The notes below the pieces were generated by a model. It had not been told where the DNA came from and made no database searches. It saw only the letters and a program-made list of their open reading frames with translations. This document shows, one piece after another, positions 8,403-38,832 of a stretch of DNA of 40,000 bases (position 1 is the stretch's first letter; every line of letters begins with the position of its first letter). The translations under genes were made by a program, and so were the position numbers. This DNA comes from Desertifilum tharense IPPAS B-1220 (GTDB lineage Bacteria > Cyanobacteriota > Cyanobacteriia > Cyanobacteriales > Desertifilaceae), in contig NZ_CM124774.1 in assembly GCF_001746915.2 (NCBI RefSeq), forward strand, positions 2,078,707-2,118,706, read 5' to 3'.

Positions 8403-8433
8403 TGTTGGGTTTCGTACCTCAACCCAACCTACG
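8403..8433. repeat. GTTGGGTT-loop-AACCCAAC hairpin repeat (copy in the hesA-nifW spacer)
   Basis: TGTTGGGTTTCGTACCTCAACCCAACCTACG is identical to 31874-31904. It has an 8-bp stem and a 9-nt loop. Confidence 0.8.
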
Positions 8434-8475
8434 CGAAAGTGTCAGTCAACCAGTAGATGGGGAGCAAAAAGCGGT

Positions 8476-9534: not shown

Positions 9535-9942
9535 TTATACCGTTACTTCTTCTAATTCATCCAGGGTGTGGGATTGCTGTTTCAAGACTTTGCGTAACCA
9601 GGGGGGAGGATTGCCGTTGAGGGTTTGGACTAATTTATTGAGAATTTCAATAATTTCGTCATCCTCGCTATTGGCTTTAATGGGGGTAACGTTCCGGCGA
9701 ATCAGGCGGGCGGCGGCGCTTCCCCCAATGGCAGAAACATAAACAATCGTGCAATCTGCTAGGGCTTCGAGTTTTGGGACTAATTTGTCTTCGTTCCCGT
9801 CTTCTTTGAGGTCGCCAGCAAATTCAAGCGTTTCGATAAACTGGAAGCCTTGGGGGGTGACATCATAGACGGCGAGTTGTTTAGCCCACCCGAAATGAGC
9901 ATTAATGTGAATCAAATCATTGGTGGCGAAGGCTATTTTCAT
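9535..9942 (-). CDS. nifX: NifX (FeMo-cofactor intermediate carrier)
   Basis: 135 aa. MKIAFATND...[13 protein letters not shown]...[17 protein letters not shown] matches the NifX/NafY fold family. The start overlaps the nifEN 3' end by 26 nt. Confidence 0.85.
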
Positions 9943-12793
9943 GGTGCTTCTCCGTTTCCATCTCTAAAAATAAGTTGCCAATCTCAAACAAAAGCTGCAT
10001 AGTGCCGCGATAGCCAATGGTGGTGCGTTGGCCGTTACCCAAGCGGTCAAAGATTGGAAATCCGAGGCGATAGAGGGGTATATTGAGACGATGAGCGATC
10101 GCGCTGGCGTTGGAATTCGCAATCAGCAAATCACTTCCCACGGCGAGTTGCTCAAAGTCATCTAAATCGCCAATCGTCACGGTTTCAATCGGCAAATTTT
10201 CCAATAAAGGAGATTTGGTGGTGGTGACTGCGGCGTGAATTTCTGCCCCCATGAAGTGCAACCACCAAGCAATGGAGTACAGTAAATCCGGTTCTAGGGC
10301 CAAAGATACCCGCTTGCGACCTAAATAGAAGTGAGTATCGAGCATGGCATCTTGCAACTGGCGGCGCATTCTGCGGTACGTGTCTGGCACGTCTACCCCA
10401 CTCAAATCGCTTAAAGCCTGCAAAAATCGATCGACCGCCTCTAACCCAGTCAGTTGGGGGAAAACCTCGTAGGGAATGCCAAAGCGCTGTTCGAGGATAT
10501 CGGCGGCTGTTCGCATACTTTCCCCGATAGCGAAGGTATAGACAGAACGCCCAATATTGCGTAACTGAGCAACGGTGGTTCCTCCCGCCGTCACCGCGCT
10601 GTAGCTATCTTCTAAATGACCATCCAAAGAGTCCGACAGATCGGGGACAATAATAGCAGTTAGGCCAAACGCTGCGATCGCATCCTTGAGTTCTTGCACG
10701 TCGCCTGGAGTGAGGGCAGGCCCGGCTAAAATGGTAATTTGATCGGGTCTAGCAGAGTTAACCAGGGGCAGTTCCTTCACTAAACCTTCCACTGCCGCCG
10801 CAAACCCATCTTGCAACGAGCCTTTAAAGTCTGCTGTAGAAACCAATACAATCGGCAACTCCTCATCTGTGGGAGTCTGACTCAATAGCTGAGGCTGGCG
10901 TTTGCGGAACTCGCGCAGAATTCTTTCCATATCATCCCCACGGGTTTCCGTTAGCCCAGTGGTGCATAATCCAATGATTTCTGGCTTAAACTTCTCCACA
11001 ATCGTCAGAATTGCCTGTTCGACATTCTCTTCCCCACCTAAAATCGTGGTAACTTCCGTCATCGCCGTCGTTGCGAGGGGAATAGCTTCCCGGAAATGCC
11101 GCACTAGCATGACTTTGGCAAACGCCGTACAGCCTTGGGAACCGTGAAATAAAGGCATCATCCCCTGAATTCCCAAGAAAGCCAGCGCCGCCCCCAAAGG
11201 TTGGCTTTGTTTGAGAGGATTAATTGCGATCGCCTTTTTCGGAGTCACAATTTGAGTAGGAGGGTGGGGGGAAAGGAGTGCAAAGTTCCGAGTTCCAAGT
11301 TCCGAGTAAGGAAGAGGGTGGGGGGATGGAGACTTTGCTGCTAACTTCTCACTCTCTTCCCACTCAGCACTCAGCACTTTACACTCAGCACTTAGAGAAG
11401 CACTCAGCACTTTACACTCAGCACTCTCTTCCCAAGGGGCTACCTGCCGCACTTGCTGCCAGATGGGACTGTAGAGGGCTTCTTCCAACTCTCGCGCCAT
11501 TTCCACCATGCCTGCATACCCGGCATAGGAATGATGGCGTTCCTGGTTAATATCTAAAAAGGGAATTCTGGCTTTTAGGGCGGTGTATTGGTTGCGTCCG
11601 CCTGCAATCAGCATATCAGCGTTGGTTTGGGCAATGACGCGCAGCAATTCCTGAGCGTTGCCCTTTTCCAACATAATCCCATCTTGACCGAGCAAGAGTT
11701 TAATCCGCGCCTTATCTTCTTCCGTGCTTTTCTTGGTACTGGTGGCTACCACCTGCATCCCCAAGTCCTTCGCGGCTGAGACAATCGACCAACTTTTAAC
11801 GCCGCCCGTATAGAGAACCACCCGCTTTCCTTGCAGGCGATCGCGATAGGGTGCTAAGGTGCGATCTAAAGTTGCCGTTTCCTCTGCAATCAGGCATTCT
11901 ACCCGGTCTTGCAAATCCGCATCGCCCAACTTTAGCGCCACATTTCGCAAACAGCGATTCATATCCTCAACACCGTAGAACGACTCCTCAATGTAAGGAA
12001 TGCCATAGCGTTCTTCCATCTTGCGGGCCATATTAATCAACGCTTTAGAACAAATCATCACGTTGAGTTTGGCGCGATGGGCATAGGCGATTTCTTGGTA
12101 ACGAGCATCGCCCGTAATTTTCGCAAGAACTCGAATCCCTAGCTTTTCAAATAGGGGTAAAACATTCCACAATTCCCCGGCAATGTTATATTCCCCAATC
12201 AAATTAATATCGTAGGGCGTCGTATATTCCGGTTCTGCGGTACCCACCACATATTCCAGTAAGGCTTCGCCCCCTACCCGATTTCCCAAGTTCTTGCTAC
12301 CAATAAAACCAGGAGAATTCACCGGAATAATCGGCGTCCCCGTCTTTTTCGCCGCCTTTTGACACACCGCATCCAAGTCATCGCCAATTAAAGCAGTAAC
12401 GCAGGTGGAATAGACAAAAATTGCGGCGGGTTGATAGCGCTGTTGGACTTCCAAAATAGATTGATACAGGCGCTTTTCACCGCCAAAAATCACATCATTT
12501 TCGGATAAATCGGTCGTGAACCCCATCTTATAGAGCAAAGGGCCAGAGGAAAGACTGCCGCGACTGCCCCAGGAATTCCCCGCACAAGCAATCGGACCGT
12601 GAACTAAATGAGCCGCATCCGTAATCGGAACGAGGGCAATCATCGCGCCATCAAAGGCACAGCCCCCTTGCGCTGCACCGGGTTGCGCTTGTTGGGTACA
12701 GGCTTTATTTTTCTTGTCTCCGTGCTTCTGGTGGTTGTGTTCGCAACCCGGTTCAGTCAGCAGTTCTTTAATTTTGCCTTGGGTCATTTTCAT
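9917..12793 (-). CDS. nifEN: Fused NifE-NifN FeMo-cofactor scaffold (single ORF)
   Basis: Uninterrupted 958 codons. Residues 1-454 are NifE (GCAFDGA..., ...[34 protein letters not shown]). Residues ~515-958 are NifN ([41 protein letters not shown]...). Residues 455-514 are repeat-derived. Confidence 0.9.
11252..11431 (-). repeat. Mosaic heptamer-repeat copy embedded in frame between the NifE and NifN moieties
   Basis: The sense strand reads GGGAAGAGAGTGCTGAGTGTAAAGTGCTGAGTGCTTCTCTAAGTGCTGAGTGTAAAGTGCTGAGTGCTGAGTGGGAAGAG...CCATCCCCCCACCCTCTTCC...CGGAACTTGGAACTCGGAACTTTGCACTC...CCCCCCACCCTCC. The same modules occur at 24217, 30082, 34261 and 35153. Confidence 0.9.
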
Positions 12794-16473: not shown

Positions 16474-17692
<1,219 letters not shown>

Positions 17693-17695
<3 letters not shown>

Positions 17696-18571
17696 GATGG
17701 CTTCAACAACTAAGGTGGGTAGAACGCGTTCTTGCAATCTGGCTTCCACCGCTATTTTGAGGGTGGCGGTACTGGAGGAACAGGAACCACAGGCCCCTTT
17801 GAGGACAACTTTCACGGTGTTTCCTTCCACGTCGTAAAGTTCAACATCGCCACCATCTGCCATTAATACGGGACGGACTTCTTCATCGAGGACGCGCTGA
17901 ATTAAGGTAATCTTTTGAACGATTGTTAGCGGCGGTTGGGGAATGGCTTCGCGCAGGGCAATTTCTGCGGCTAGGGTTTTGGCTTCCTTATAGAGATCGG
18001 TGAGGACATCTTCAATAGCGGCTGCACAGGAACTACAACCCCCTCCGGCTTTGACGTAGCTGGTGACTTGTTCGACGGTGGTGAGGTTATTTTCAATCGC
18101 CACGCGCCGGATCTTGTTTTCGCTAACGCCATAGCAAGCGCAGATTAAAGCCCCTTCATCTTCTTCGTGATGTTCGATTTCAATGCCGCGATACTTATAA
18201 ATGGCGGCTTCTAGGGCTTCTTGTCCCATTACAGAACAGTGCATTTTGGCTTCGGGTAGTCCTCCGAGATAATCGGCGATCTCTTTGTTGGTGACGTGCA
18301 GCGCTGCGTCTAAGGTGAGTCCTTTAATGAGTTCAGTCAGTGCTGAAGAAGAAGCGATCGCGCTGGTGCAGCCAAAGGTCTGAAAGCGGGCATCCAGAAT
18401 TTTATCGGAGGCGATATCAATCTGAAGATGCAGTCGCAGCGCGTCTCCGCAAGCAATGCTACCCACTTCGCCGAAGACAACGGCAATTCCCGGTTCTTCG
18501 CAGGGTGCGATCGCGCCTTGGTTTTTGGGGTTATAGAACAGGTCTAATACTTTGTCGGTGTAGTCCCACAT
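17693..18571 (-). CDS. nifU: NifU Fe-S cluster scaffold
   Basis: 292 aa. IscU-like N-terminus (GSIACGDALRLHL), central 2Fe-2S region (LICACYGV...GGGCSSC) and Nfu-like C-terminus (GACGSCSSS). Confidence 0.95.
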
Positions 18572-23660: not shown

Positions 23661-24206
23661 ATGACATCATTACAGGCAACGGTACAAGAATTCGGTCAAG
23701 TCGGAGAAAACCCCATTGGTTTAGACTTAGAAGCGACAGTCGCCATTTGTGAAGGTCTGAATTTGGTCTTTGCTAGTTTTCAAGGCCTTTACTTGCAATA
23801 CCAGAAACATCACTTCGTTATTGAAGGGGCAGAATTTTACTCCCTGCATGAGTTTTTCCAAGAAGGCTATGAAGCCGTTAAAGATCACGCGCACGATCTA
23901 GCAGAACGCCTCAATGGGTTAGGAGGCGTTCCAGCGGCCAGTTTTGACAAACTCGCAGAACTCTGCTGTTTTACCTCCGAACCCGATGGAATTTGCACGG
24001 CGCGTCAAATGGTTGAAAACGATCTGCAAGCCGAACAAAGCATCATTGAAATGATTCGGCGACAAGCATCGCAAGCCGAGAGTTTAGGCGATCGCGCTAC
24101 CCGCTATCTCTACGAACAAATCTTGCTGAAAACCGAAGATCGCGCCTTTCATCTAGCCCATTTCCTCGCCGCCGATAGCTTAGTTCTCAGTTTCCTACCC
24201 GACTAA
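23661..24206 (+). CDS. dps: Dps-family ferritin-like DNA-binding/iron-detoxifying protein
   Basis: 181 aa. ...[42 protein letters not shown]... is the Dps ferroxidase-site helix pattern. Confidence 0.85.
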
Positions 24207-24216
24207 GCGTTTCTAA

Positions 24217-24535
24217 GTGCTGAGTGTAAAGTGCTGAGTGCTGAGTGGGAAGAGGGTGGGGGAAGTGAGTGCTGAGTGTAAAGTGCTGAGTGCTGAGTGG
24301 GAAAGAGGGTAGGGGAAAGAGTGCAAAGTTCCGAGTTCCGTAGCTTGCTTCCGCGTAGCGGTGTTCCTAGTAGGAAGACAGTGCTGAGTTAATCGTTACC
24401 AAGTTTTCCTAACTCCTCTTCCCCCAACTCCTAACTCCCAATTCCCAACTCCCTTCTTCCCCCCACCTCCCCATCCCCCCACCTCCTCTTCCCCCAACTC
24501 CCAACTCCCAATTCCCAACCCCCTTCTCCCCTGGA
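24217..24535 (+). repeat. Mosaic repeat copy in the dps-nifV spacer
   Basis: 2 x GTGCTGAGTGTAAAGTGCTGAGTGCTGAGTGGGAAGAGGGTGGGGG, then AGTGCAAAGTTCCGAGTTCCGTAGCTTGCTTCCGCGTAGCGGTGTTCC, then C-rich CTCCTAACTCCCAATTCCCAACTCCC modules. It begins 10 nt after the dps stop. Confidence 0.9.
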
Positions 24536-24542
24536 GGTCATT

Positions 24543-24668
24543 ATGCTAGCCACCTTTAGCGTTCTGTGTTTCTTCTTGATGTATATGTTTGCCCATGCTT
24601 ATGTCTTGGACAGACTTCTAAAAGATACTGCTCAGTCTACTAAGTATTCCCATCCCATCCAACGATAA
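24543..24668 (+). CDS. Candidate 41-aa single-TM peptide upstream of nifV (unsupported by homology)
   Basis: ATG preceded by GGAGG (24533-24537, 5-nt spacer). Translation: MLATFSVLCFFLMYMFAHAYVLDRLLKDTAQSTKYSHPIQR. Below the ORF-track length cutoff. Confidence 0.25.
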   Translation: MLATFSVLCFFLMYMFAHAYVLDRLLKDTAQSTKYSHPIQR

Positions 24669-27603: not shown

Positions 27604-30081
27604 ATGACAATTTCACCGATAAAACCTCAAACCCCGGCTTCAAGTACGTCTAACAACTGGGCAACTGTAGAGGAAAGTCCACTAACACCGGACGAACTGA
27701 ATAAAATCAATGCTTACTGGCGGGCTGCTAATTATTTATCGGTGGGACAAATCTATTTATTAGATAATCCGTTACTGAAAGAACCCCTAAAACTCGAACA
27801 TATCAAACCTAGATTGCTCGGTCATTGGGGAACGACACCGGGTTTAAACTTTATTTACGCTCACCTCAACCGCGTCATTAAACGAGATGACCTGGATATG
27901 ATTTATATTGCAGGGCCAGGTCATGGGGGGCCGGCTTTGGTAGCAAATGTTTACTTAGAAGGGACGTATAGCGAATATTATCCCGACATTAGCCAGGATG
28001 AGGCGGGTATGAAGGCCTTGTTTAAACAATTCTCCTTCCCCGGCGGTATTCCTAGCCATGTGGCCCCAGAAACTCCGGGTTCCATCCACGAAGGCGGCGA
28101 ACTGGGTTACGCGCTGTCTCACGCCTATGGCGCGGCGTTTGATAACCCCGATCTGATTGTCGCTTGTGTGGTGGGCGATGGGGAAGCAGAAACCGGAGCA
28201 TTAGCCACTGCTTGGCACTCTAACAAATTTCTCAACCCAATCGGCGATGGGGCTGTTTTACCGATTTTGCACCTGAATGGGTATAAAATTGCTAATCCTA
28301 CGATTTTGGCGCGTTTAACTCAACATGAGTTAGAAAGCCTGTTTGTTGGCTATGGCTATAAACCCTATTTTGTGGAAGGGTCAGATCCAGAAACCTTGCA
28401 TCAGTATATGGCGGCGACGGTGGATCGAGCGATCGCCGATATCCGTTCCATCCAGCAACAAGCGCGTACCCAGGGGTTGCAAGGTAGACCTTGTTGGCCG
28501 ATGATTATTTTGCGATCGCCCAAAGGATGGACCGGACCTGCTGAAGTGGATGGAAAGAAAACAGAAGGCTATTGGCGATCGCACCAAGTCCCTTTTTCTA
28601 ATATGGCTAATAATCCCAACCATATCGCGCTATTGGAAAACTGGATGAAGGGTTACAAACCTGAAGAACTCTTTGATAAGAACGGTACGCTTATTCCCGA
28701 ACTCGCAGAACTGGCCCCTAAAGGTCATCGTCGCATGGGCGATAACCCCCACGCCAACGGCGGTTTATTACTCAAAGCCCTAAAAATGCCTTCTTTTCAA
28801 AACTATGCGGTTGAAGTTCCCGAACCCGGAACCACGATCGCCCAGGCAACAAAGGTAATGGGTGAATTTCTGCGCGATATTATTAAACTCAATTCCCGTA
28901 GCTTTCGCTTATTCGGCCCGGATGAAACCGCCTCTAACCGCCTAAGTGCCGTATTTGAAGAGAGCGATCGCACCTGGCTAGCCCAAATGTATCCCGACGA
29001 CGATCATCTGTCTACCGACGGTCGAGTTATGGAAGTCTTAAGCGAACATACCTGTCAAGGATGGTTAGAAGGATACCTGCTAACAGGTCGTCACGGCTTA
29101 TTCTCTTGCTATGAAGCCTTTATCCACATCATCGACTCAATGTTTAACCAGCACGCCAAATGGTTGAAAACAACCAACGATATCATCTGGCGGCGTCCCA
29201 TTGCTTCCTTAACCTACCTGCTAACGTCCCATGTCTGGCGACAAGATCATAACGGCTTTTCTCACCAAGATCCCGGCTTTATTGACCATGTTGCGAACAA
29301 AAAAGCCGAAGTCATCCGCGTTTACTTACCCCCAGATGCCAATACCTTACTCTCCGTTACCGATCACTGCTTGCGGAGTTGCCAATATGTCAACGTCATC
29401 GTCGCCGGAAAGCAACCCGCCTTGCAATATCTGGATATGCCTTCAGCCATTAAACACTGTACGAAAGGAATCGGGATTTGGGAATGGGCTAGCAGCGATC
29501 GCGGTGCAGAACCTGACTTGGTGATGGCTTGTGCGGGCGATGTTCCCACAATGGAAACCTTAGCAGCAGTCGATCTCCTCAGACAACATTTCCCAGAACT
29601 CAAGGTGCGCGTCGTCAATATCGTAGACTTAATGAAGTTGCAGCCCGAAAGCGAACATCCCCACGGCTTAAGCGATAAAGACTTTGATGCCATCTTCACG
29701 ACAGATAAACCGATTATTTTTGCCTATCATGGTTATCCTTGGCTGATTCATCGCTTGACCTATCGCCGGACTAACCACCATAACTTGCACGTTCGCGGCT
29801 ATAAGGAAGAAGGCACCACAACAACGCCGTTTGATATGGTGGTCTTGAATGAGTTAGACCGCTTTCACCTGGTTATGGATGCGATCGATCGCGTTCCTCA
29901 ACTGGGTTATGCGGCGGCGTATATCAAGCAAATGCTGCAAGATCGCTTAATTGAACACCAGCAATATGTCCGCCAGCATGGAGACGATCTCCCAGAGATC
30001 CGCAACTGGAAATGGCCCTACAGCAGTCCCGCAAACGCTAGCAATGGGGAGTCTGAGAGTCATTCCTCGCCATCTCATTAA
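27604..30081 (+). CDS. xfp: Phosphoketolase (xylulose-5-P/fructose-6-P)
   Basis: 825 aa. ...[20 protein letters not shown]...[10 protein letters not shown]...[15 protein letters not shown]...GDGEAETG. Confidence 0.95.
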
Positions 30082-30230
30082 GTGCTGAGTGTAAAGTGCT
30101 GAGTGCTGAGTGAGAAGTAAGTGCTGAGTGTAAAGTGCTGAGTGCTGAGTAAGTTCCGAGTTCCGAGTTCCGAGTTCCGAGTTCCGAGTCGGGAAGAGAG
30201 TGCTGAGTTAATAGTTACCAAGTTTTCCTG
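30082..30230 (+). repeat. Mosaic repeat copy starting at the xfp stop (GTGCTGA and GTTCCGA heptamer modules)
   Basis: TAA|GTGCTGAGTGTAAAGTGCTGAGTGCTGAGTGAGAAGTAAGTGCTGAGTGTAAAGTGCTGAGTGCTGAGTAA, then 5 x GTTCCGA in tandem, then GGGAAGAGAGTGCTGAGTTAATAGTTACCAAG. Confidence 0.92.
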
Positions 30231-30450
30231 TCTCTTCTTCCCCCCAACTCCTAACTCCCAATTCCCAACTCCCCTCTTCCCCCCAACTCCTAACTCCCAA
30301 TTCCCAACTCCCCTTTTCCCCCCAACTCCTAACTCCCAATTCCCAACTCCCCTCTTCCCCCCAACTCCTAACTCCCAATTCCCAACTCCCCTCTTCCCCC
30401 CAACTCCTAACTCCCAATTCCCAACTCCCCTCTTCCCCCCATCCCCCCAT
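30231..30450 (+). repeat. Tandem array, 5 x 39 bp (AACTCCTAACTCCCAATTCCCAACTCCCCTCTTCCCCCC) with partial flanks
   Basis: Units start at 30246, 30285, 30324, 30363 and 30402, giving an exact 39-bp period. Only one substitution was seen (unit 2: CTTTTCC versus CTCTTCC). No unique spacers. Confidence 0.95.
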
Positions 30451-30573
30451 CTCTCAGAGTGAGGAAGGTTGTTTAGATACAGCCGAATTTGAAAATAAAC
30501 CCTAAAAATAGGGGATTACCAAAATGCTGGTGTATGTTTCCTCTGAGTGGGTCTGCATAAAGGAATTTGCGAC

Positions 30574-31749
30574 ATGGCTAAAAGCTTACTAGAGCAACTG
30601 CGGGAAATGACCGTTGTGGTTGCGGATACGGGCGATATTCAAGCAATTGAAAAATTTACGCCCCGCGATGCTACCACAAATCCCTCTTTGATTACAGCGG
30701 CCGCCCAAATGCCGCAATATCAGGAAATTGTGGACGAAACGCTGCTACAGGCGAAAAAAGATTCAGGTTCGAGTGCGACAGAAACCCAAATTGCGACGTT
30801 AGCCTTCGATCGTCTGGCGGTATCTTTTGGGAAGAAGATTCTGGAAATTATCCCTCAACGCGTGTCTACTGAGGTGGATGCACGCCTCTCCTATGATACA
30901 GAAGCAACGATCGCCAAAGCCCGCGATCTGATCGCTCAATATGAAGCTTCGGGGATTGGGCGCGATCGCGTTTTAATTAAAATAGCCTCAACCTGGGAAG
31001 GCATCAAGGCCGCAGAAGTCTTAGAAAAAGAAGACATTCACTGCAATCTCACGTTACTATTTGGGTTGCATCAGGCGATCGCTTGTGCTGAAGCTAATAT
31101 CACGCTGATTTCTCCGTTTGTCGGTCGTATCCTTGACTGGTACACGAAGGAAACCGGGAAAGAGTATATCGGCGCAGAAGATCCTGGGGTTCAGTCTGTC
31201 ACCAAAATCTACAATTACTACAAGAAATTTGGCTACAAAACTGAAGTCATGGGTGCGAGTTTCCGCAATATTAGCGAAATTACAGAACTCGCGGGTTGCG
31301 ACTTACTGACTATTTCCCCCAAACTTCTCGCCGAGTTAGACACTAGCGAAGAACAACTGATCCGCAAACTCTCGCCCGATACCGCAATGGCGATGGATAT
31401 TGAGAAAATAACAATGGACAAAGCCACCTTTGACCAAATGCACGCAGCGGATCGGATGGCGAATGAAAAGCTAGATGAAGGGATCAAAGGTTTTACCAAA
31501 GCCCTAGAAACCCTAGAACAACTCCTGGCTGCGCGTCTATTCCGCCTAGAGGCGGGTGAATCTGTGGGTCATGCTGCCGAAGAAATCTTTTTAGCGTACG
31601 ATTTAGATGGCGATGGCTTCATTACGCGGGAAGAATGGCTAGGCAGCGATGCGGTTTTTGACGCCCTCGATGAAGACCACGATGGCAAAATTTCCCCCGA
31701 AGAAATGGGCGTTGGCTTAGGCGGCGTGTTCCAACTCGTCAAGGCTTGA
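30574..31749 (+). CDS. tal: Transaldolase with a C-terminal two-EF-hand extension
   Basis: The ATG at 30574 (AAGGA upstream) gives 391 aa: ...[25 protein letters not shown]...[12 protein letters not shown]. The tail carries [12 protein letters not shown] (31600-31635) and [12 protein letters not shown] (31669-31704). The track ORF starts at GTG 30547. Confidence 0.9.
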
Positions 31750-31826: not shown

Positions 31827-31904
31827 CGTAGGTTGGGTTAGCGTCAGCGTAACCCAACACTCGCGACTAGGACTGTTGGGTTTCGTACCTCAACCCAACC
31901 TACG
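31827..31904. repeat. Composite of two GTTGGGTT/AACCCAAC hairpin repeats in inverted arrangement
   Basis: CGTAGGTTGGGTT (31827-31839) is perfectly complementary to AACCCAACCTACG (31892-31904). Each half also forms its own 8-9-bp hairpin. Confidence 0.8.
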
Positions 31905-31928
31905 AAAAAGATTTGTCAATCTGAAACA

Positions 31929-32037: not shown

Positions 32038-32084
32038 TGCACTCAGCACTCAGCACTTTCTACTCAGCACTAAAAGAAGCACTA
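32038..32084 (-). repeat. Short mosaic-repeat copy starting on the petA stop
   Basis: The minus strand reads TAGTGCTTCTTTTAGTGCTGAGTAGAAAGTGCTGAGTGCTGAGTGCAG. Confidence 0.8.
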
Positions 32085-33954: not shown

Positions 33955-34263
33955 ATGACAGGACAGGACTTACGCCAGTTATTGCTGCAAAAATGGGGCT
34001 GCTCTTATGACATCCAACTCCGACAGACGCAAGGGAAAGTGTTTGTACAAGTGATGTGGAAGTATCTAGAGCAAGCTTCTTTTCCCCTGTCCGAAATTGA
34101 GTATATCCAGCGTCTAGACCGGGTGGCAACGTATCTCAATGACTGGGGATGTATCGAACGGGTGCGAACTTACATCGAACAAACTCGCGATCGCCCCCGT
34201 TTGGGTAAGGCGGTTAGCATTCCTGTCGAATTAGGCGATCGCGCTTCGGAATGGATCTTGTGA
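33955..34263 (+). CDS. DUF3067-family conserved cyanobacterial/plastid-lineage protein
   Basis: 102 aa, AAGGAG Shine-Dalgarno upstream. MTGQDLRQLLLQKWGCSYDIQLRQTQGKVFVQVMWKYLEQASFPLSE. Confidence 0.7.
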   Translation: MTGQDLRQLLLQKWGCSYDIQLRQTQGKVFVQVMWKYLEQASFPLSEIEYIQRLDRVATYLNDWGCIERVRTYIEQTRDRPRLGKAVSIPVELGDRASEWIL

Positions 34264-34341
34264 GTACCGAGTTCCGAGTGGGAAAAGAGTGCTGAGTGTA
34301 AAGTGCTGAGTGCTGAGTGGGTTTAAGAGTGTTGAGTAAAG
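34261..34341 (+). repeat. Mosaic repeat copy starting on the DUF3067 stop
   Basis: TGAGTACCGAGTTCCGAGTGGGAAAAGAGTGCTGAGTGTAAAGTGCTGAGTGCTGAGTGGGTTTAAGAGTGTTGAGTAAAG. Confidence 0.85.
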
Positions 34342-34483: not shown

Positions 34484-35101
34484 ATGATCCGAACTGCTAG
34501 TAGCCCTTCCCAACCGGAAACGCAAACCCGCGATCGCATCCTCAAAGCGGCTCAACACTTGTTTGCACGCAAAGGATATGACGGAACTACAACTCGCGAT
34601 CTCGCTCAGGCTGCTGGGGTAGCAGAAGGTACGCTGTTTCGGCATTTTACCAATAAAAAAGCCATCTTAATTGAAATTGCGACTCAAGGTTGGGTTGAAA
34701 TTCTCACCGACTTGCTGACAGAATTGAGCGAAATGGGCAGTTACAAAGCAGTTGCTCAAGTGATGCGGCGGCGGATGCTGAATTTACACCAAAACGCAGA
34801 TATGTTGCGGGTGTGCTTTATGGAAGCCCAATTTCACCCCGATTTGCGCGATCAAATTCAATCGGAAGTGATTGGTAAAATGACGGATGTGGCAGAAGCT
34901 TTCTTTCAAACCGCAATGGATCGGGGAACCTATCGCCGCATGAACCCCCGCATCGTCGCCCAAGTTTTTCTAGGGATGTTTACCATTGCCGGATTCAGTC
35001 AAGATACCATTATGGACTCTAACTCGTCCCCCAAAGCCATGCAAGAAATGGCCGAAGGACTCGCTGATATCTTCCTCAACGGCGTCTTAGCCAAAGATTG
35101 A
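34484..35101 (+). CDS. TetR/AcrR-family transcriptional regulator
   Basis: 205 aa. N-terminal HTH: RDRILKAAQHLFARKGYDGTTTRDLAQAAGVAEGTLFRHFTNKKAI. Confidence 0.85.
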   Translation: MIRTASSPSQPETQTRDRILKAAQHLFARKGYDGTTTRDLAQAAGVAEGTLFRHFTNKKAILIEIATQGWVEILTDLLTELSEMGSYKAVAQVMRRRMLNLHQNADMLRVCFMEAQFHPDLRDQIQSEVIGKMTDVAEAFFQTAMDRGTYRRMNPRIVAQVFLGMFTIAGFSQDTIMDSNSSPKAMQEMAEGLADIFLNGVLAKD

Positions 35102-35152
35102 CACTCCCCTGGCTAAAGCCGAGGGGATTCTACATTCACAGACTCACCGATA

Positions 35153-35395
35153 ACCCTCTTCCCCACTCAGCACTAACTTCCCCCACCCTCTTCCCCACTC
35201 GGAACACCACCACGCGGAAGCAAGCGCAACAGCACTTTAAACTCAGGACTAAGAACCCCACTCAGCACACCGCTACTTGGTGTGCAAGCTACAGCACTTT
35301 ACACTCAGCGCTCTTTCCCCCCACCTCCCCATCTCCCCATCCCCCCACCCTCTTCCCCACTCAGCACTCAGCACTCAGCACTCAGCACTCACTTA
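35153..35395 (-). repeat. Mosaic repeat copy starting on the stop of the 35393-35866 ORF
   Basis: The minus strand reads TAAGTGA, then 4 x GTGCTGA, then GTGGGGAAGAGGGTGGGGGGATGGGGAGATGGGGAGGTGGGGGG...GCTGAGTGTAAAGTGCTG...CTTGCTTCCGCGTGGTGGTGTTCCGAGTGGGGAAGAGGGTGGGGG. Confidence 0.85.
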
Positions 35396-35866
35396 CTGCG
35401 ATCGCCAACGCTTCTGAACCGGATGTAACCCTGCTAGCTTGGCGATTAATTCCGTCGGGATTTTTTTCGCTTCTTCGATCCCCACCCATTCCGCTAACTG
35501 AAGTTTCATCAAGCGAGAACGATGGGGCGAAGAGGGTTCAAGGGCAATTTGTTCTAACTTTTTGATATAGTTAATCCGATTTTTGAACGCGGTTTGACGT
35601 TCTTCGTAAGTTTCCGGGACGTTAAAGCGCACCACGCCCGCGACGTAGACAAATTGACACTGAATATCAAAAGTTCCTCCAACAGCGGCTCCTGAGCCAG
35701 CGAAGTCGGCATAGAAGTCCTTAAGCAGGATTAACCCTCCAGGCGAGTCTTCCGTAATCGATAAAAACTGTCCGCTCTGAAACAAAGAGACAGGAACAGA
35801 CGAAACGCCCTCATTTTCTTGTTCGGCTGGCTTCATCTGTAAAGACGACAGGGAAAGGACTTGCAT
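35393..35866 (-). CDS. Hypothetical protein, family not recognised
   Basis: Track ORF 35393..35893 (TTG start). The first ATG is at 35866 and another at 35836. The ORF is non-repetitive and convergent with tetR. Confidence 0.45.
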   Translation of the reverse strand: MQVLSLSSLQMKPAEQENEGVSSVPVSLFQSGQFLSITEDSPGGLILLKDFYADFAGSGAAVGGTFDIQCQFVYVAGVVRFNVPETYEERQTAFKNRINYIKKLEQIALEPSSPHRSRLMKLQLAEWVGIEEAKKIPTELIAKLAGLHPVQKRWRSQ

Positions 35867-36018
35867 AAATATAAGCGCAAGAGAGGGAATCAACTCTCTC
35901 TCGTTATATATCCCACAATGAGATAAATATGCGCCTAATGTTACGTTTAAACAACAATCAATTTAATTCTTGCCTTTGACCCGTTTCAAGGAGGGAATCT
36001 CTTCCCTCCTCAAATAGG

Positions 36019-38832
36019 CTAAACAATTTCAGATTTGGCTTGTACCGTAGTTTGCGGTTGCGGTTGGAACTGGAAGAGGGAGTAAACGACGTTCCGGCGG
36101 ATCGAAATCATCATTTCCAGGAACAGTTCGTAGCCTTCACTCTTATACTCAATCAGCGGGTCTTTTTGCCCGTAACCGCGCAACCCAACCGACTCGCGCA
36201 ACGCATCCATTTGTTGGAGGTGTTCGCGCCAGAGGGTATCAATTTGCTGCAAGATAAAGAAACGCTCGGCTTGGCGCATTAGACCGGGTTGAATTTGGTC
36301 AATTTGCGCTTCCTTGAGGTCGTAGGCGATGCGGATCTGTTCGTGCAGGAAGGTCTTCATTTCTGCAAAGCTGAGGTCTTCGAGTTGTTCGGGTTCCAAG
36401 TCAGCTAGCAGATAGACGAATTCTTTGACCTTGCTCACCAGTTGCGCCAGTTCCCAATCTTCGGGGGGCAATTCTGGGTTAACGTAGGCTTCTACGATGT
36501 CATCCATCGTTTTTTCGGCGTATTTAATCACCTGTTCTTTCAGGTCTTGACCTTCAAGGACGCGGCGACGTTCGGCGTAGATGGCGCGGCGTTGGTTGTT
36601 CATTACCTCGTCGTACTCAAACACCTGTTTGCGGATGTCGTAGTAGTAGGTTTCAACCTTTTTCTGAGCGCCTTCTAAGGAACGAGTTAAGATACCCGAT
36701 TCAATGGGCATATCTTCTTCAACTTTAAACGCTTCCATCAGGCCGCGAACGCGATCGCCTCCAAAGATCCGCAGCAAGTTATCTTCCAAACTCAGGAAGA
36801 ACTTGGTTGCGCCGGGGTCTCCTTGGCGTCCGGCGCGTCCCCGCAGTTGGTTATCGATCCGGCGAGAGTCGTGGCGTTCTGTACCGATGACGTACAAGCC
36901 GCCTAAATTGACCACTTCTTCGTGTTCGCGATGGGTGAAAACTTCGTATTCTTCGCGAATGCGGTTAAACACTTCCCGCAATTTTTGAATCACGAGGTCT
37001 TCCGTGGGGGCTTTTTCCGCAGCAACGGCGACCTTATCTTCAGCGGCTAACTCCGAGAGCGATCGCTCTCCGTACTGCTTCACCGCAAAGTCTACCGCCT
37101 CTTTGAGTAGCTTTTCCGTTTCCTTGGATAACTCCGTCGGGAAAATCTGAGGGGAAGCCTTCCAGGTTTTCACCTTCTTGTTATCGCCAAACCCTTGTCC
37201 GCCACCTTTACCGCCTGCGGCTGGAACTTTCGCTAAGTTAAAATTACCCTCTTCATCGGGTTGGACAATGCGGGGCATAAAGTATTCCCGCAGCTTCAAG
37301 CGGGCCATGTAGTCCGCATTCCCCCCCAAAATAATATCGGTTCCGCGTCCGGCCATGTTAGTGGCGATCGTTACGGCTCCCTTGCGGCCGGCTTGGGCGA
37401 CAATTTCCGACTCCCGTTCCACGTTTTCCGGCTTTGCGTTCAGCAGTTGGTGGGGGACTTTCAACTCCGTGAGGAGGGTAGATAGCACCTCAGACTTCTC
37501 AACGCTGGTGGTTCCTACCAGTACCGGGCGGCCCTTTTCGTGCATTTCCGCACAGTCCCGCGCCACCGCCTGCCATTTACCCAACTCCGTTTTGTACACC
37601 ACATCGGAGAGGTCAGCCCGTTTGGTGGAGCGGTTTGTGGGGACAACCGTCACTTCCAGGTTATAAATTTTCTCAAATTCAGCCTCTTCAGTTTTCGCCG
37701 TCCCCGTCATCCCCGACAGTTTGGGGTACAGCAAGAAGAAGTTTTGATAGGTAATGGTTGCTAGAGTTTGGGTTTCTGGCTGAATTTCTACATGTTCTTT
37801 GGCTTCAATGGCTTGGTGCAAACCATCGCTCCAACGACGACCGGGCATAACGCGTCCGGTAAACTCGTCTACAATCACAATTTCGTCATTGCGGACGATG
37901 TAGTTAACATCTTTAATAAACAGTTCCTTGGCTTTAATCGCATTAAACACAAAATGCGCCCAAGGATCTTTAGGGTCAAACAGATCGTCTACGCCTAATG
38001 CTTGCTCGGCGGCGATATACCCTTCATCGGTAAGCAGGACGTTCCGAGCTTTCTCATCCACTTCGTAATGGTCGTCGCTATTGAGTTGACGGGCAACATC
38101 GGCGGCGCGCAAATACTTTTCGCTCGGACGGTCTACCTGACCGGAGATAATCAAAGGGGTACGGGCTTCATCGACCAGTACCGAGTCTACCTCGTCAATC
38201 ACGCAGAAGTTAAACGGACGCTGCACGACTTCTGCCATTGAGTTAGACATGTTATCGCGCAGGTAGTCAAACCCAACTTCGCTGTTGGTGGCGTAGGTAA
38301 TATCGCAGGCGTAGTTGCGCTGGCGTTCCTCTGGCCCCATACTTTGTTGAATCAGACCGACGCTTAAGCCCAGGAAGCGGTGAACTTGCCCCATCCACTC
38401 GGCGTCGCGGCGGGCGAGGTAGTCGTTAACGGTGATGACGTGGACGCCTTTCCCGCTGAGAGCATTGAGGTAGGCGGGAAGGGTGGAAACCAGGGTTTTG
38501 CCTTCCCCGGTTTTCATTTCGGCAATTTGTCCGTCGTGCAAGACCATACCGCCAATCAACTGTACGTCAAAGTGGCGCATTCCCAGAACTCGGCGCGAGG
38601 CTTCGCGGACGACTGCAAAGGCTTCTGGCAGCAGCTCGTCTAGCATCTCTTTTTGCTCGTTATCGGATTTAGCCTTTGCTAGCCGCGCTTTGAATTCTGC
38701 TGTTTTGCCCACTAAATCCTGGTCGGATAGGGCTTGGACTTCTTCCTCTAGTAGCTTGATTTCGGCAACGTAAGGTTGATATTTTTTGAGCTTACGTGCA
38801 TTGGGATCGCCCAACAAATTTTTCAGGAACAT
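36019..38832 (-). CDS. secA: Preprotein translocase ATPase SecA
   Basis: 937 aa. ...[20 protein letters not shown]...[21 protein letters not shown]...[10 protein letters not shown]. Confidence 0.97.

Follow-up and report, generated by a model that had tools for sequence, protein, structure and literature searches.

A single-chain NifEN in the nif cluster of Desertifilum

The DNA analysed here is a stretch of 40,000 nucleotides (nt) from contig NZ_CM124774.1 of Desertifilum tharense IPPAS B-1220, a non-heterocystous filamentous cyanobacterium of the Desertifilales; we refer to this whole stretch as the window. Its minus strand carries nifEN, the gene for the bifunctional scaffold protein NifEN of the iron-molybdenum cofactor (FeMo-co). 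According to the list of open reading frames (ORFs) and the translation of the window, nifEN is one ORF of 958 codons with zero internal stops, and this single uninterrupted frame contains a complete NifE half and a complete NifN half, joined by a linker of 60 codons. A preliminary description of this DNA had read the gene in the same way, regarded the fusion as a departure from known biology, and proposed that a dispersed repeat had removed the nifE stop codon and thereby created it. The single ORF is confirmed, whereas the other two claims have to be given up: the Desertifilum protein is a member of a known family of single-chain NifEN proteins, and its peculiarity is an unusually long, repeat-derived linker.

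In a profile search, TIGR01283 (nifE) matches residues 5-454 with 735 bits against a cutoff of 505, and TIGR01285 (nifN) matches residues 514-943 with 659 bits against a cutoff of 327, which bears out the division into NifE (residues 1-454) and NifN (about 515-958) made in the preliminary description. The protein also scored 1440.9 bits with the curated NCBIfam equivalog profile for single-chain NifEN (NF011047/PRK14477), well above the cutoff of 1229; residues 7-953 were aligned to positions 2-915 of the 917 profile positions. The NifE half aligns to NifE of Azotobacter vinelandii (3PDI_A), the cysteines of the CAFDG, ACAGNSW, STCVTAL and MICSKA motifs being conserved, and the alignment of the NifN half with A. 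vinelandii NifN (3PDI_B) begins at residue 4-5 of the latter, the HGSQGC cysteine being conserved. The residues C45, C70, C131, C248 and C555 of the window protein align with the matching motifs of these two chains. In A. vinelandii, the cysteines of the [4Fe-4S] cluster at the E/N interface and of the cofactor site are C37, C62, C124 and C250 of NifE together with C44 of NifN. The cluster-binding cysteines of both halves are intact in Desertifilum and invariant across an alignment of 29 sequences (A1).

All 120 homologues listed in the protein search are fusions of 897-990 residues, and the nearest among the matches listed come from Oculatella, Leptolyngbya and Egbenema with 83-84% identity. 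In A1 the left border of the linker reads ...SPIWxQVRxxAPWE and the right border (P)TQ[IV][IV]T(S/P)KKA[IV]A[IV]NPLK, while there is zero conservation between the borders. The linkers of 102 fused homologues comprise 15-59 residues with a median of 23, and the Desertifilum linker is the longest. Fused nifEN genes have also been reported for the nif2 cluster of Anabaena variabilis and for Chroococcidiopsis thermalis PCC 7203 (PMC4284476), for nine named cyanobacterial genomes, Trichodesmium among them (PMC8071049), and for 29 cyanobacterial and Nitrospira assemblies (PMC8399215). In A. vinelandii, function has been shown for two natural fusions, those of A. variabilis and Geobacter metallireducens, for which a single polypeptide of ~105 kDa has been described that supports FeMo-co maturation (PMC10865832). 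Furthermore, the PDB entries 9I0G and 9I0H contain a 919-residue single chain matching both halves, and a literature search under the code 9I0G found no paper. A Nat Catal 2026 paper on NifEN was rejected as a precedent for an E-N fusion, as it deals with an engineered NifEN-B fusion.

Anatomy of the linker and the dispersed mosaic repeat

The 180 nt of the linker translate exactly to the peptide quoted in the preliminary description, and its statement that nifEN crosses the repeat in the only open frame is true for the sense strand, where the two other frames contain 4 and 5 stops. In total, 74% of the linker bases lie inside 13-mers which recur elsewhere in the window, while the rest of nifEN, cut into 40 tiles of 180 nt, shows a mean recurrence of 2.2% and a maximum of 14% (the mask was built on 13-mers, 11-mers being dropped because of their high background). 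At the protein level the 7-residue periodicity of linkers was uninformative, and the inspection was done on the DNA instead. Here Tandem Repeats Finder (TRF) reports arrays of period 7 at 11284-11307 (AGTTCCG) and of period 7/14 at 11361-11426 (CACTCAG).

The recurring bases form a left and a right patch, for which coordinates and modules are given in Table 1. The left patch has the orientation of the array arms which begin at 24214 and 30079, and the copy at 11361-11404 (repeat family D5) is 91% identical to 32040-32083. Between the patches a core of 24 nt recurs nowhere in the window, and the same holds for the final 8 nt of the linker (11252-11259). Therefore the earlier equation of the linker with a copy of the mosaic repeat is right for most of its length, and wrong for the core and for the last 8 nt. 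The latter hold the ACTCAA (T-Q) codons which are common to Oculatella and Leptolyngbya sp. AN02str. The core reads GAGAAGTTAGCAGCAAAG (EKLAAK); its GAGAAGTTAG followed by AGCAAA matches GAGAAGTTAGGAAGCAAAAC (EKLGSK) in the linker of Leptolyngbya AN02str, in the same frame and at a similar position, and a 10-nt exact match such as the one contained here would be expected by chance with a probability of ~1e-3 (our own rough estimate). The core is therefore likely a remnant of the ancestral linker.

Direct repeats of 13 nt bracket two units of the linker, of 72 and 54 nt. Excision of both units would leave a linker of 18 codons, which is the linker length of Oculatella. The first TGGGAAGAGAGTG copy takes in the conserved W-E codons of the NifE C-terminus, and the first TGGGAAGAG is the native W-E-E at this C-terminus, resembling the GAGTGGGAAGAGGGTG module of the repeat. 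As marks of insertion these bracketing repeats are suggestive only. In an AlphaFold2 model based on the 29-sequence alignment, residues 458-508 have a predicted local distance difference test (pLDDT) score below 50 with block means of ~30, while much of both NifEN domains is modelled at moderate to high confidence. Together with the length range in the family this model points to a linker that is probably disordered, and that seems to be unconstrained in sequence and length across the family.

The repeat itself consists of the units AGTGCTG, AGTTCCG, CCCAACT and CCCCCCAT plus C-rich and G-rich modules. Six further patches are found in the 40 kb. All of them lie between genes recognised by Pfam, and they start 0-50 nt downstream of a stop codon; the preliminary description had likewise placed the repeat in intergenic DNA directly behind stop codons. 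TRF reports period 7 also at 24216-24299, 30081-30189, 30243-30429 and 35358-35391. The contact with stop codons can be very close. The last A of the phosphoketolase TAA (30079-30081) is the first A of an AGTGCTG unit, the TGA of the DUF3067 gene (34261-34263) falls in a GAGTACC heptamer, the petA TAG (32082-32084) lies inside the repeat, and the array at the Dps/ferritin-like gene starts within a few bases of the stop codon (24204-24216). It is possible that genes receive their 3' ends from the mosaic repeat or have them replaced by it.

In the arrays at 24205-24545 and at 17490-17700, the latter in the nifU-nifH spacer, a G-rich arm precedes a C-rich one, and long imperfect hairpins are predicted for both arrays (z = -3.3 and z = -3.7, respectively). 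Structures for the processing or stabilisation of mRNA are known from the nifU-nifH spacer of other cyanobacteria. Because the two patches of the linker have opposite orientations, forward on the left and reverse on the right, a long imperfect hairpin is predicted for the linker RNA as well (-68.6 kcal/mol; z = -2.84 against shuffled controls). This is a property of the repeat arrays and is not to be taken as a sign of function in nifEN. At gathering thresholds the window matched no Rfam family. On the plus strand, several ORFs with lengths of 90-155 codons traverse the arrays or lie antisense to the linker (11278-11550, 30142-30462 and 35098-35565). There is no Pfam match for 30142-30462 and 35098-35565, nor for 35393-35893, which like 35098-35565 lies across the array at the TetR-family gene. 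The ORFs in the arrays and antisense to the linker are probably by-products of stop-poor repeat frames, which gene callers could mistake for genes.

Age of the fusion and origin of the long linker

The nifE-nifN junctions were surveyed in 80 of 347 cyanobacterial E-N loci found by a genome-contig scan, which returned no Desertifilum genome. An open junction was seen in Oculatella, Leptolyngbya AN02str, Egbenema, the Trichodesmium/Okeania/Dapis group and several metagenome-assembled genomes (MAGs) of Elainellaceae and Leptolyngbyaceae, and a split one in the remaining lineages of the sample, which are mostly Nostocales and also include Crinalium, Elainella, Scytolyngbya and the outgroup Roseiarcus. 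The split pairs of this sample are nearly all in the same frame, and in many of them the nifN ATG comes immediately after the nifE stop. Because single tblastn segments spanning both genes score higher, this excess is probably a ranking bias, and it was not used as evidence.

A neighbour-joining tree was calculated from the concatenated E and N parts; it is rooted with Roseiarcus, has no support values, and its sample is biased toward in-frame junctions. Fused and split states are interleaved in this tree, in which the window groups with Oculatella, Leptolyngbya AN02str and Egbenema, all three of which are fused. Their linkers are short, with 18, 25 and 25 codons, respectively (54-75 nt), and contain no 12-mer recurring elsewhere in the fetched locus. 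They have the same borders as the Desertifilum linker, the start of NifN is likewise without Met, and the Desertifilum repeat is absent. The preliminary description had asked whether close relatives have a stop and a start where the repeat is absent; the junctions of these three are fused. Since the nearest relatives are fused at the same borders and free of the repeat, the fusion predates the repeat in Desertifilum. Judged by these sequences, the fusion is the older of the two, and the repeat only lengthened an existing linker.

A second assembly bears on the right patch. In the Desertifilum MAG GCA_021208125, contig JAJOKC010000083.1 begins inside this patch, 67 nt upstream of a GTG codon at the linker/NifN border, and is 97.5% identical to the window over the first 3.9 kb aligned, from nifN onward. 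NifN is annotated there as a separate protein of 444 residues starting at the GTG. This free-standing call was made because the contig breaks inside the linker repeat, and it is an annotation artefact which could inflate the counts of split nifE/nifN pairs. In the nifEN frame the 66 nt before the GTG contain no stop, and their two differences from the window are both synonymous. Since the right patch is in frame in the MAG too, it predates the divergence of both lineages. A search for the NifE 3' end and left patch of this MAG with residues 330-520 of the protein yielded fragments from other taxa only. Metagenome contigs were also scanned for exact patterns of the linker core and of the linker/NifN border, which gave 0 matches and no polymorphic alleles from Desertifilum.

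Taken together, these data are very probably best explained by an inherited single-chain NifEN whose tether was enlarged in the Desertifilum lineage by the heptamer-based mosaic repeat of this genome. In the ancestral state NifE (...APWE) would have been joined to NifN (TQ[IV][IV]T-KKA...) by a short disordered tether. In the Desertifilum lineage this tether would have grown from ~18-25 codons to 60, about three times its likely original length, by the acquisition of two patches of the mosaic repeat, one on each side of the remnant of the old linker. Slippage or illegitimate recombination may have brought in the repeat, making use of microhomology such as that of the native TGGGAAGAG to the GAGTGGGAAGAGGGTG of the repeat. 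It would persist in nifEN because the segment is structurally unconstrained, because the length of each added unit (72 and 54 nt) is divisible by three, and because both are read in the only frame free of TGA and TAA. The extra 42 residues would be neutral or nearly so, providing a longer flexible tether which keeps E and N at 1:1.

The mechanism put forward in the preliminary description, in which nifE and nifN were separate in a recent ancestor and a repeat at the nifE stop deleted this stop in the Desertifilum lineage, is very improbable. It is true that the mosaic repeat abuts or overlaps stop codons elsewhere in the window, that little change would be needed as split relatives often have a nifE stop followed by an in-frame nifN ATG, and that the split spacer of Cylindrospermum NIES-4074 has the same GAGTGCT heptamers. 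However, the nearest relatives are repeat-free and yet fused at the same borders with a NifN lacking Met, the window groups with these fused relatives in the tree, and a remnant of a pre-existing linker lies between both patches. That an indel or a collapse of the repeat in the assembly masks a stop or a frameshift, so that the genes are in fact separate, is almost certainly wrong. Short-read assembly does break at this place, as is seen from the MAG contig beginning inside the linker, but the identical 958-residue protein is found under four NCBI accessions from Desertifilum, named bifunctional NifEN, and the record of D. tharense IPPAS B-1220 has the same sequence with another annotated start. 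Moreover, the sequence before the GTG is open in the MAG, and fusion is the norm of the family.

We regard it as quite unlikely that free NifN is made besides NifEN, be it by internal initiation at the GTG (11248-11246), as the preliminary description had suggested, or through cleavage within the linker, of either mRNA or protein. The GTG is present, a long disordered linker would be accessible to proteases, and the predicted hairpin of the linker RNA is of the type of structure at which cyanobacterial nif transcripts get processed; in A. variabilis nif mRNA is processed at such hairpins. On the other hand, the GTG is not conserved, the relatives reading VIT, IIT, VVT or VQI, no purine-rich Shine-Dalgarno-like run is visible upstream of it, and only the MAG annotation uses it as a start. 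A promoter/terminator scan of 10900-11800 gave no promoter-like site, and the sole terminator-like site of this region is on the plus strand at 10901-10919, outside the linker. Functional fusions with shorter linkers also indicate that such a device is not needed. It is likewise unlikely, if a little less so, that the extension was selected, either for a longer reach between the domains or between the (EN)2 halves, or for ribosomes pausing at the hairpin, in which case NifE would fold and load its cluster before NifN emerges. The linker is the longest among the 102 homologues compared, both differences to the MAG before the GTG are synonymous, and the RNA folds better than shuffled controls. 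But two synonymous changes carry no statistical weight, the length (15-59 residues) and the sequence of the linker are unconstrained in the family, the same repeats make up non-coding spacers and split E-N junctions as well, and the tendency to form hairpins is inherent to these repeat arrays themselves.

Several points weigh against the reading we prefer, an inherited fusion with a tether enlarged by the repeat. The tree sets the fused Desertifilum/Oculatella clade beside the split Crinalium, Elainella and Scytolyngbya, and there may have been a re-fusion in the common ancestor of this clade. No repeat-free allele was found at the level of Desertifilum, the next relative being only 84% identical; as this empty site is missing, we infer the order and the timing of the two insertions. 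The homology of the core with the Leptolyngbya linker rests on ~16 nt, and the bracketing 13-nt repeats, being parts of repeat modules themselves, need not mark insertion boundaries. The neutrality of the extra residues is an assumption, the somewhat better folding of the linker RNA in comparison to shuffled controls leaves room for a role at the RNA level, and in the literature searched no expression or protein data were found for Desertifilum.

Genomic context and comparison with known systems

The nifEN gene is located inside a molybdenum nitrogenase cluster with the order nifB, an fdxN-like ferredoxin gene, nifS, nifU, nifH, nifD, nifK, Mo-nitro_C and nifEN, followed downstream by nifX, a DUF269 gene, a Rop-like gene, nifW, hesA, hesB and fdxH, with nifV nearby. 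This gene order is that of the nif2 cluster of A. variabilis. The end of nifEN and the start of nifX overlap by 26 nt (9917-9942), and the same overlap is called in the MAG contig JAJOKC010000083.1 (1377-1402), which suggests translational coupling. Apart from the heptamer mosaic, a 37-nt element (TGTTGGGTTTCGTACCTCAACCCAACCTACG..; family D19) is present twice with 95% identity, in the hesA-nifW spacer (8403-8439) and in the transaldolase-petA spacer (31874-31910). It holds a GTTGGGTT/AACCCAAC inverted repeat and might represent a palindromic element, small and dispersed, that is separate from the mosaic. Outside the nif genes, the P-loop_SecA match in SecA (36019-38832, minus strand) spans 304 residues for 205 profile positions, which implies an insertion of ~100 residues in this domain, and the transaldolase ORF (30547-31749, plus strand) has C-terminal EF-hand matches at about residues 345-387.

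Table 1. Positions in the window of nifEN, its parts and the copies of the mosaic repeat.
Feature	Coordinates	Strand	Basis or remark
nifEN, bifunctional FeMo-cofactor scaffold NifEN	9917..12793	-	single 958-codon ORF; NF011047
NifE domain, residues 1-454, conserved C-terminal end	11432..12793	-	TIGR01283
Inter-domain linker, 60 codons	11252..11431	-	translation and frame count
NifN domain, residues 515-958 and stop codon, N-terminal Met absent	9917..11251	-	TIGR01285
Left repeat patch, AGTGCTGAGTGTAAAGTGCTGAGTGC module twice	11354..11431	-	13-mer recurrence mask
Non-repeat core AGAGTGAGAAGTTAGCAGCAAAGT, encodes ..SEKLAAKS	11330..11353	-	24 nt; recurs nowhere in window
Right repeat patch: CCCCCCACCCTCTTCC, reverse-complemented AGTTCCG heptamers, GAGTGCAAAG, CCCCCCACCCTCC	11260..11329	-	families D4, D11
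72-nt unit (24 codons), 13-nt direct repeat TGGGAAGAGAGTG at 11434 and 11362	11363..11434	-	direct-repeat search
54-nt unit (18 codons), 13-nt direct repeat TCCCCCCACCCTC at 11326 and 11272	11273..11326	-	direct-repeat search
GTG codon (Val516), proposed internal NifN start, unsupported	11246..11248	-	start use only in MAG contig
Mosaic repeat array, reference copy; Dps/ferritin-like gene to nifV	24212..24519	+	intergenic
Mosaic repeat array; phosphoketolase to transaldolase	30079..30451	+	begins within TAA stop codon
Repeat array, nifU-nifH spacer	17504..17695	-	repeat search and TRF
Repeat copy over petA stop codon	32020..32088	-	91% identity to linker 11361-11404
Repeat copy from TGA stop of DUF3067 gene	34263..34331	+	repeat search
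Repeat array downstream of TetR-family gene	35148..35409	-	repeat search

Tandem repeats at the E-N junction are not restricted to Desertifilum. Among split spacers they were seen in Cylindrospermum NIES-4074 ((GAGTGCT)n), Anabaena UHCC 0451 ((GGGAGCA)n and (CTCCTGA)n) and two MAGs, J06621_15 with runs of CAGTTAA and CAATTAC and a Coleofasciculaceae MAG with (AATCCAA)n. Fused linkers contain them as well: a Leptolyngbyaceae MAG has AAATCCA-type units, the nif2 gene of A. variabilis has GGAGCAG units encoding GEQRSRGAEEQRG, and a Cyanothece MAG has (GAGCAGGG)5, while in Nostoc CALU 41% of the linker consists of 12-mers that also occur at other places of its locus, its own nifS-nifU spacer among them. 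Several linkers share the peptide IQNPKSKIQN, which results from translating (AATCCAA)n. The junction repeat units of these other cyanobacteria are genome-specific and 7 or 8 nt long. Seen in this light, the linker of Desertifilum is an extreme case of something common and not a singular event. One might speculate that the E-N junction is a general sink for the tandem repeats of each genome, that these repeats and not point mutation account for most of the diversity of NifEN linkers in length and sequence, and that, as in-frame stops were gained or lost with them, they may have toggled the junction between split and fused several times in the evolution of cyanobacteria, but we consider this doubtful. 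If it were true, the mechanism of the preliminary description would be right in some lineage, though not in Desertifilum.

For the biology of nitrogenase these results are of little import, as single-chain NifEN proteins have been catalogued, are functional and have been solved, and the Desertifilum protein was already named NifEN. They do provide a clean natural case of selfish short repeats which are tolerated in frame in an essential gene, having landed in a disordered tether. That the NifEN linker can be stretched from 15 to 60 residues should be useful for fused nif genes in plants or yeast. For annotation, caution is advised, as contig breaks in the repeat yield spurious separate NifN proteins. 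The recurrence of heptamer repeats at split and fused E-N junctions is a lead to be followed, as they are possible drivers of changes in gene architecture.

Like the Desertifilum protein, the natural NifEN fusions of A. variabilis nif2, C. thermalis, Trichodesmium erythraeum IMS101, Calothrix spp. and G. metallireducens have the arrangement NifE-linker-NifN with the same borders, the same cysteines and the same position in the cluster, after nifK/Mo-nitro_C and before nifX. Desertifilum differs from them in the length of its linker, 60 against a family median of 23, and in the fact that this linker is mostly made of the dispersed repeat of its own genome. Translational NifE-N and NifD-K fusions have reportedly been engineered by Suh et al. 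(BBRC, 2002), and the polyprotein strategy is said to be of the same kind. As would be the case in the Desertifilum NifEN, the tether of such engineered fusions makes the 1:1 stoichiometry obligate without precluding function; however, they are man-made with designed linkers, while the Desertifilum linker is natural and of accidental sequence. Further natural nif fusions are nifN-B in Clostridia and vnfDG in A. variabilis (PMC8399215, PMC4284476). These resemble nifEN in that adjacent genes of nitrogenase assembly are joined in one ORF, although the partners differ.

With regard to the repeat, tandem heptamer repeats of cyanobacteria (STRR) were reportedly described by Mazel et al. in 1990, and small dispersed repeats (SDR) of cyanobacteria are said to have been treated by Elhai et al. 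in 2008. In Nostoc, heptamer repeats, among them those of the type GGGGA(C/T)T, are over-represented; they are located 0-50 bp from stop codons, and about one third of them are intragenic (PMC4692102). The pattern in the window agrees with this. The Desertifilum repeat shares with these known repeats the tandem units of 7 nt, the mosaic structure, the intergenic location near or overlapping stop codons and the intragenic minority. In contrast to the known heptamers it has other unit sequences, its host belongs to the Desertifilales and not to the heterocystous order, and in an essential nif gene it is translated to give a linker.

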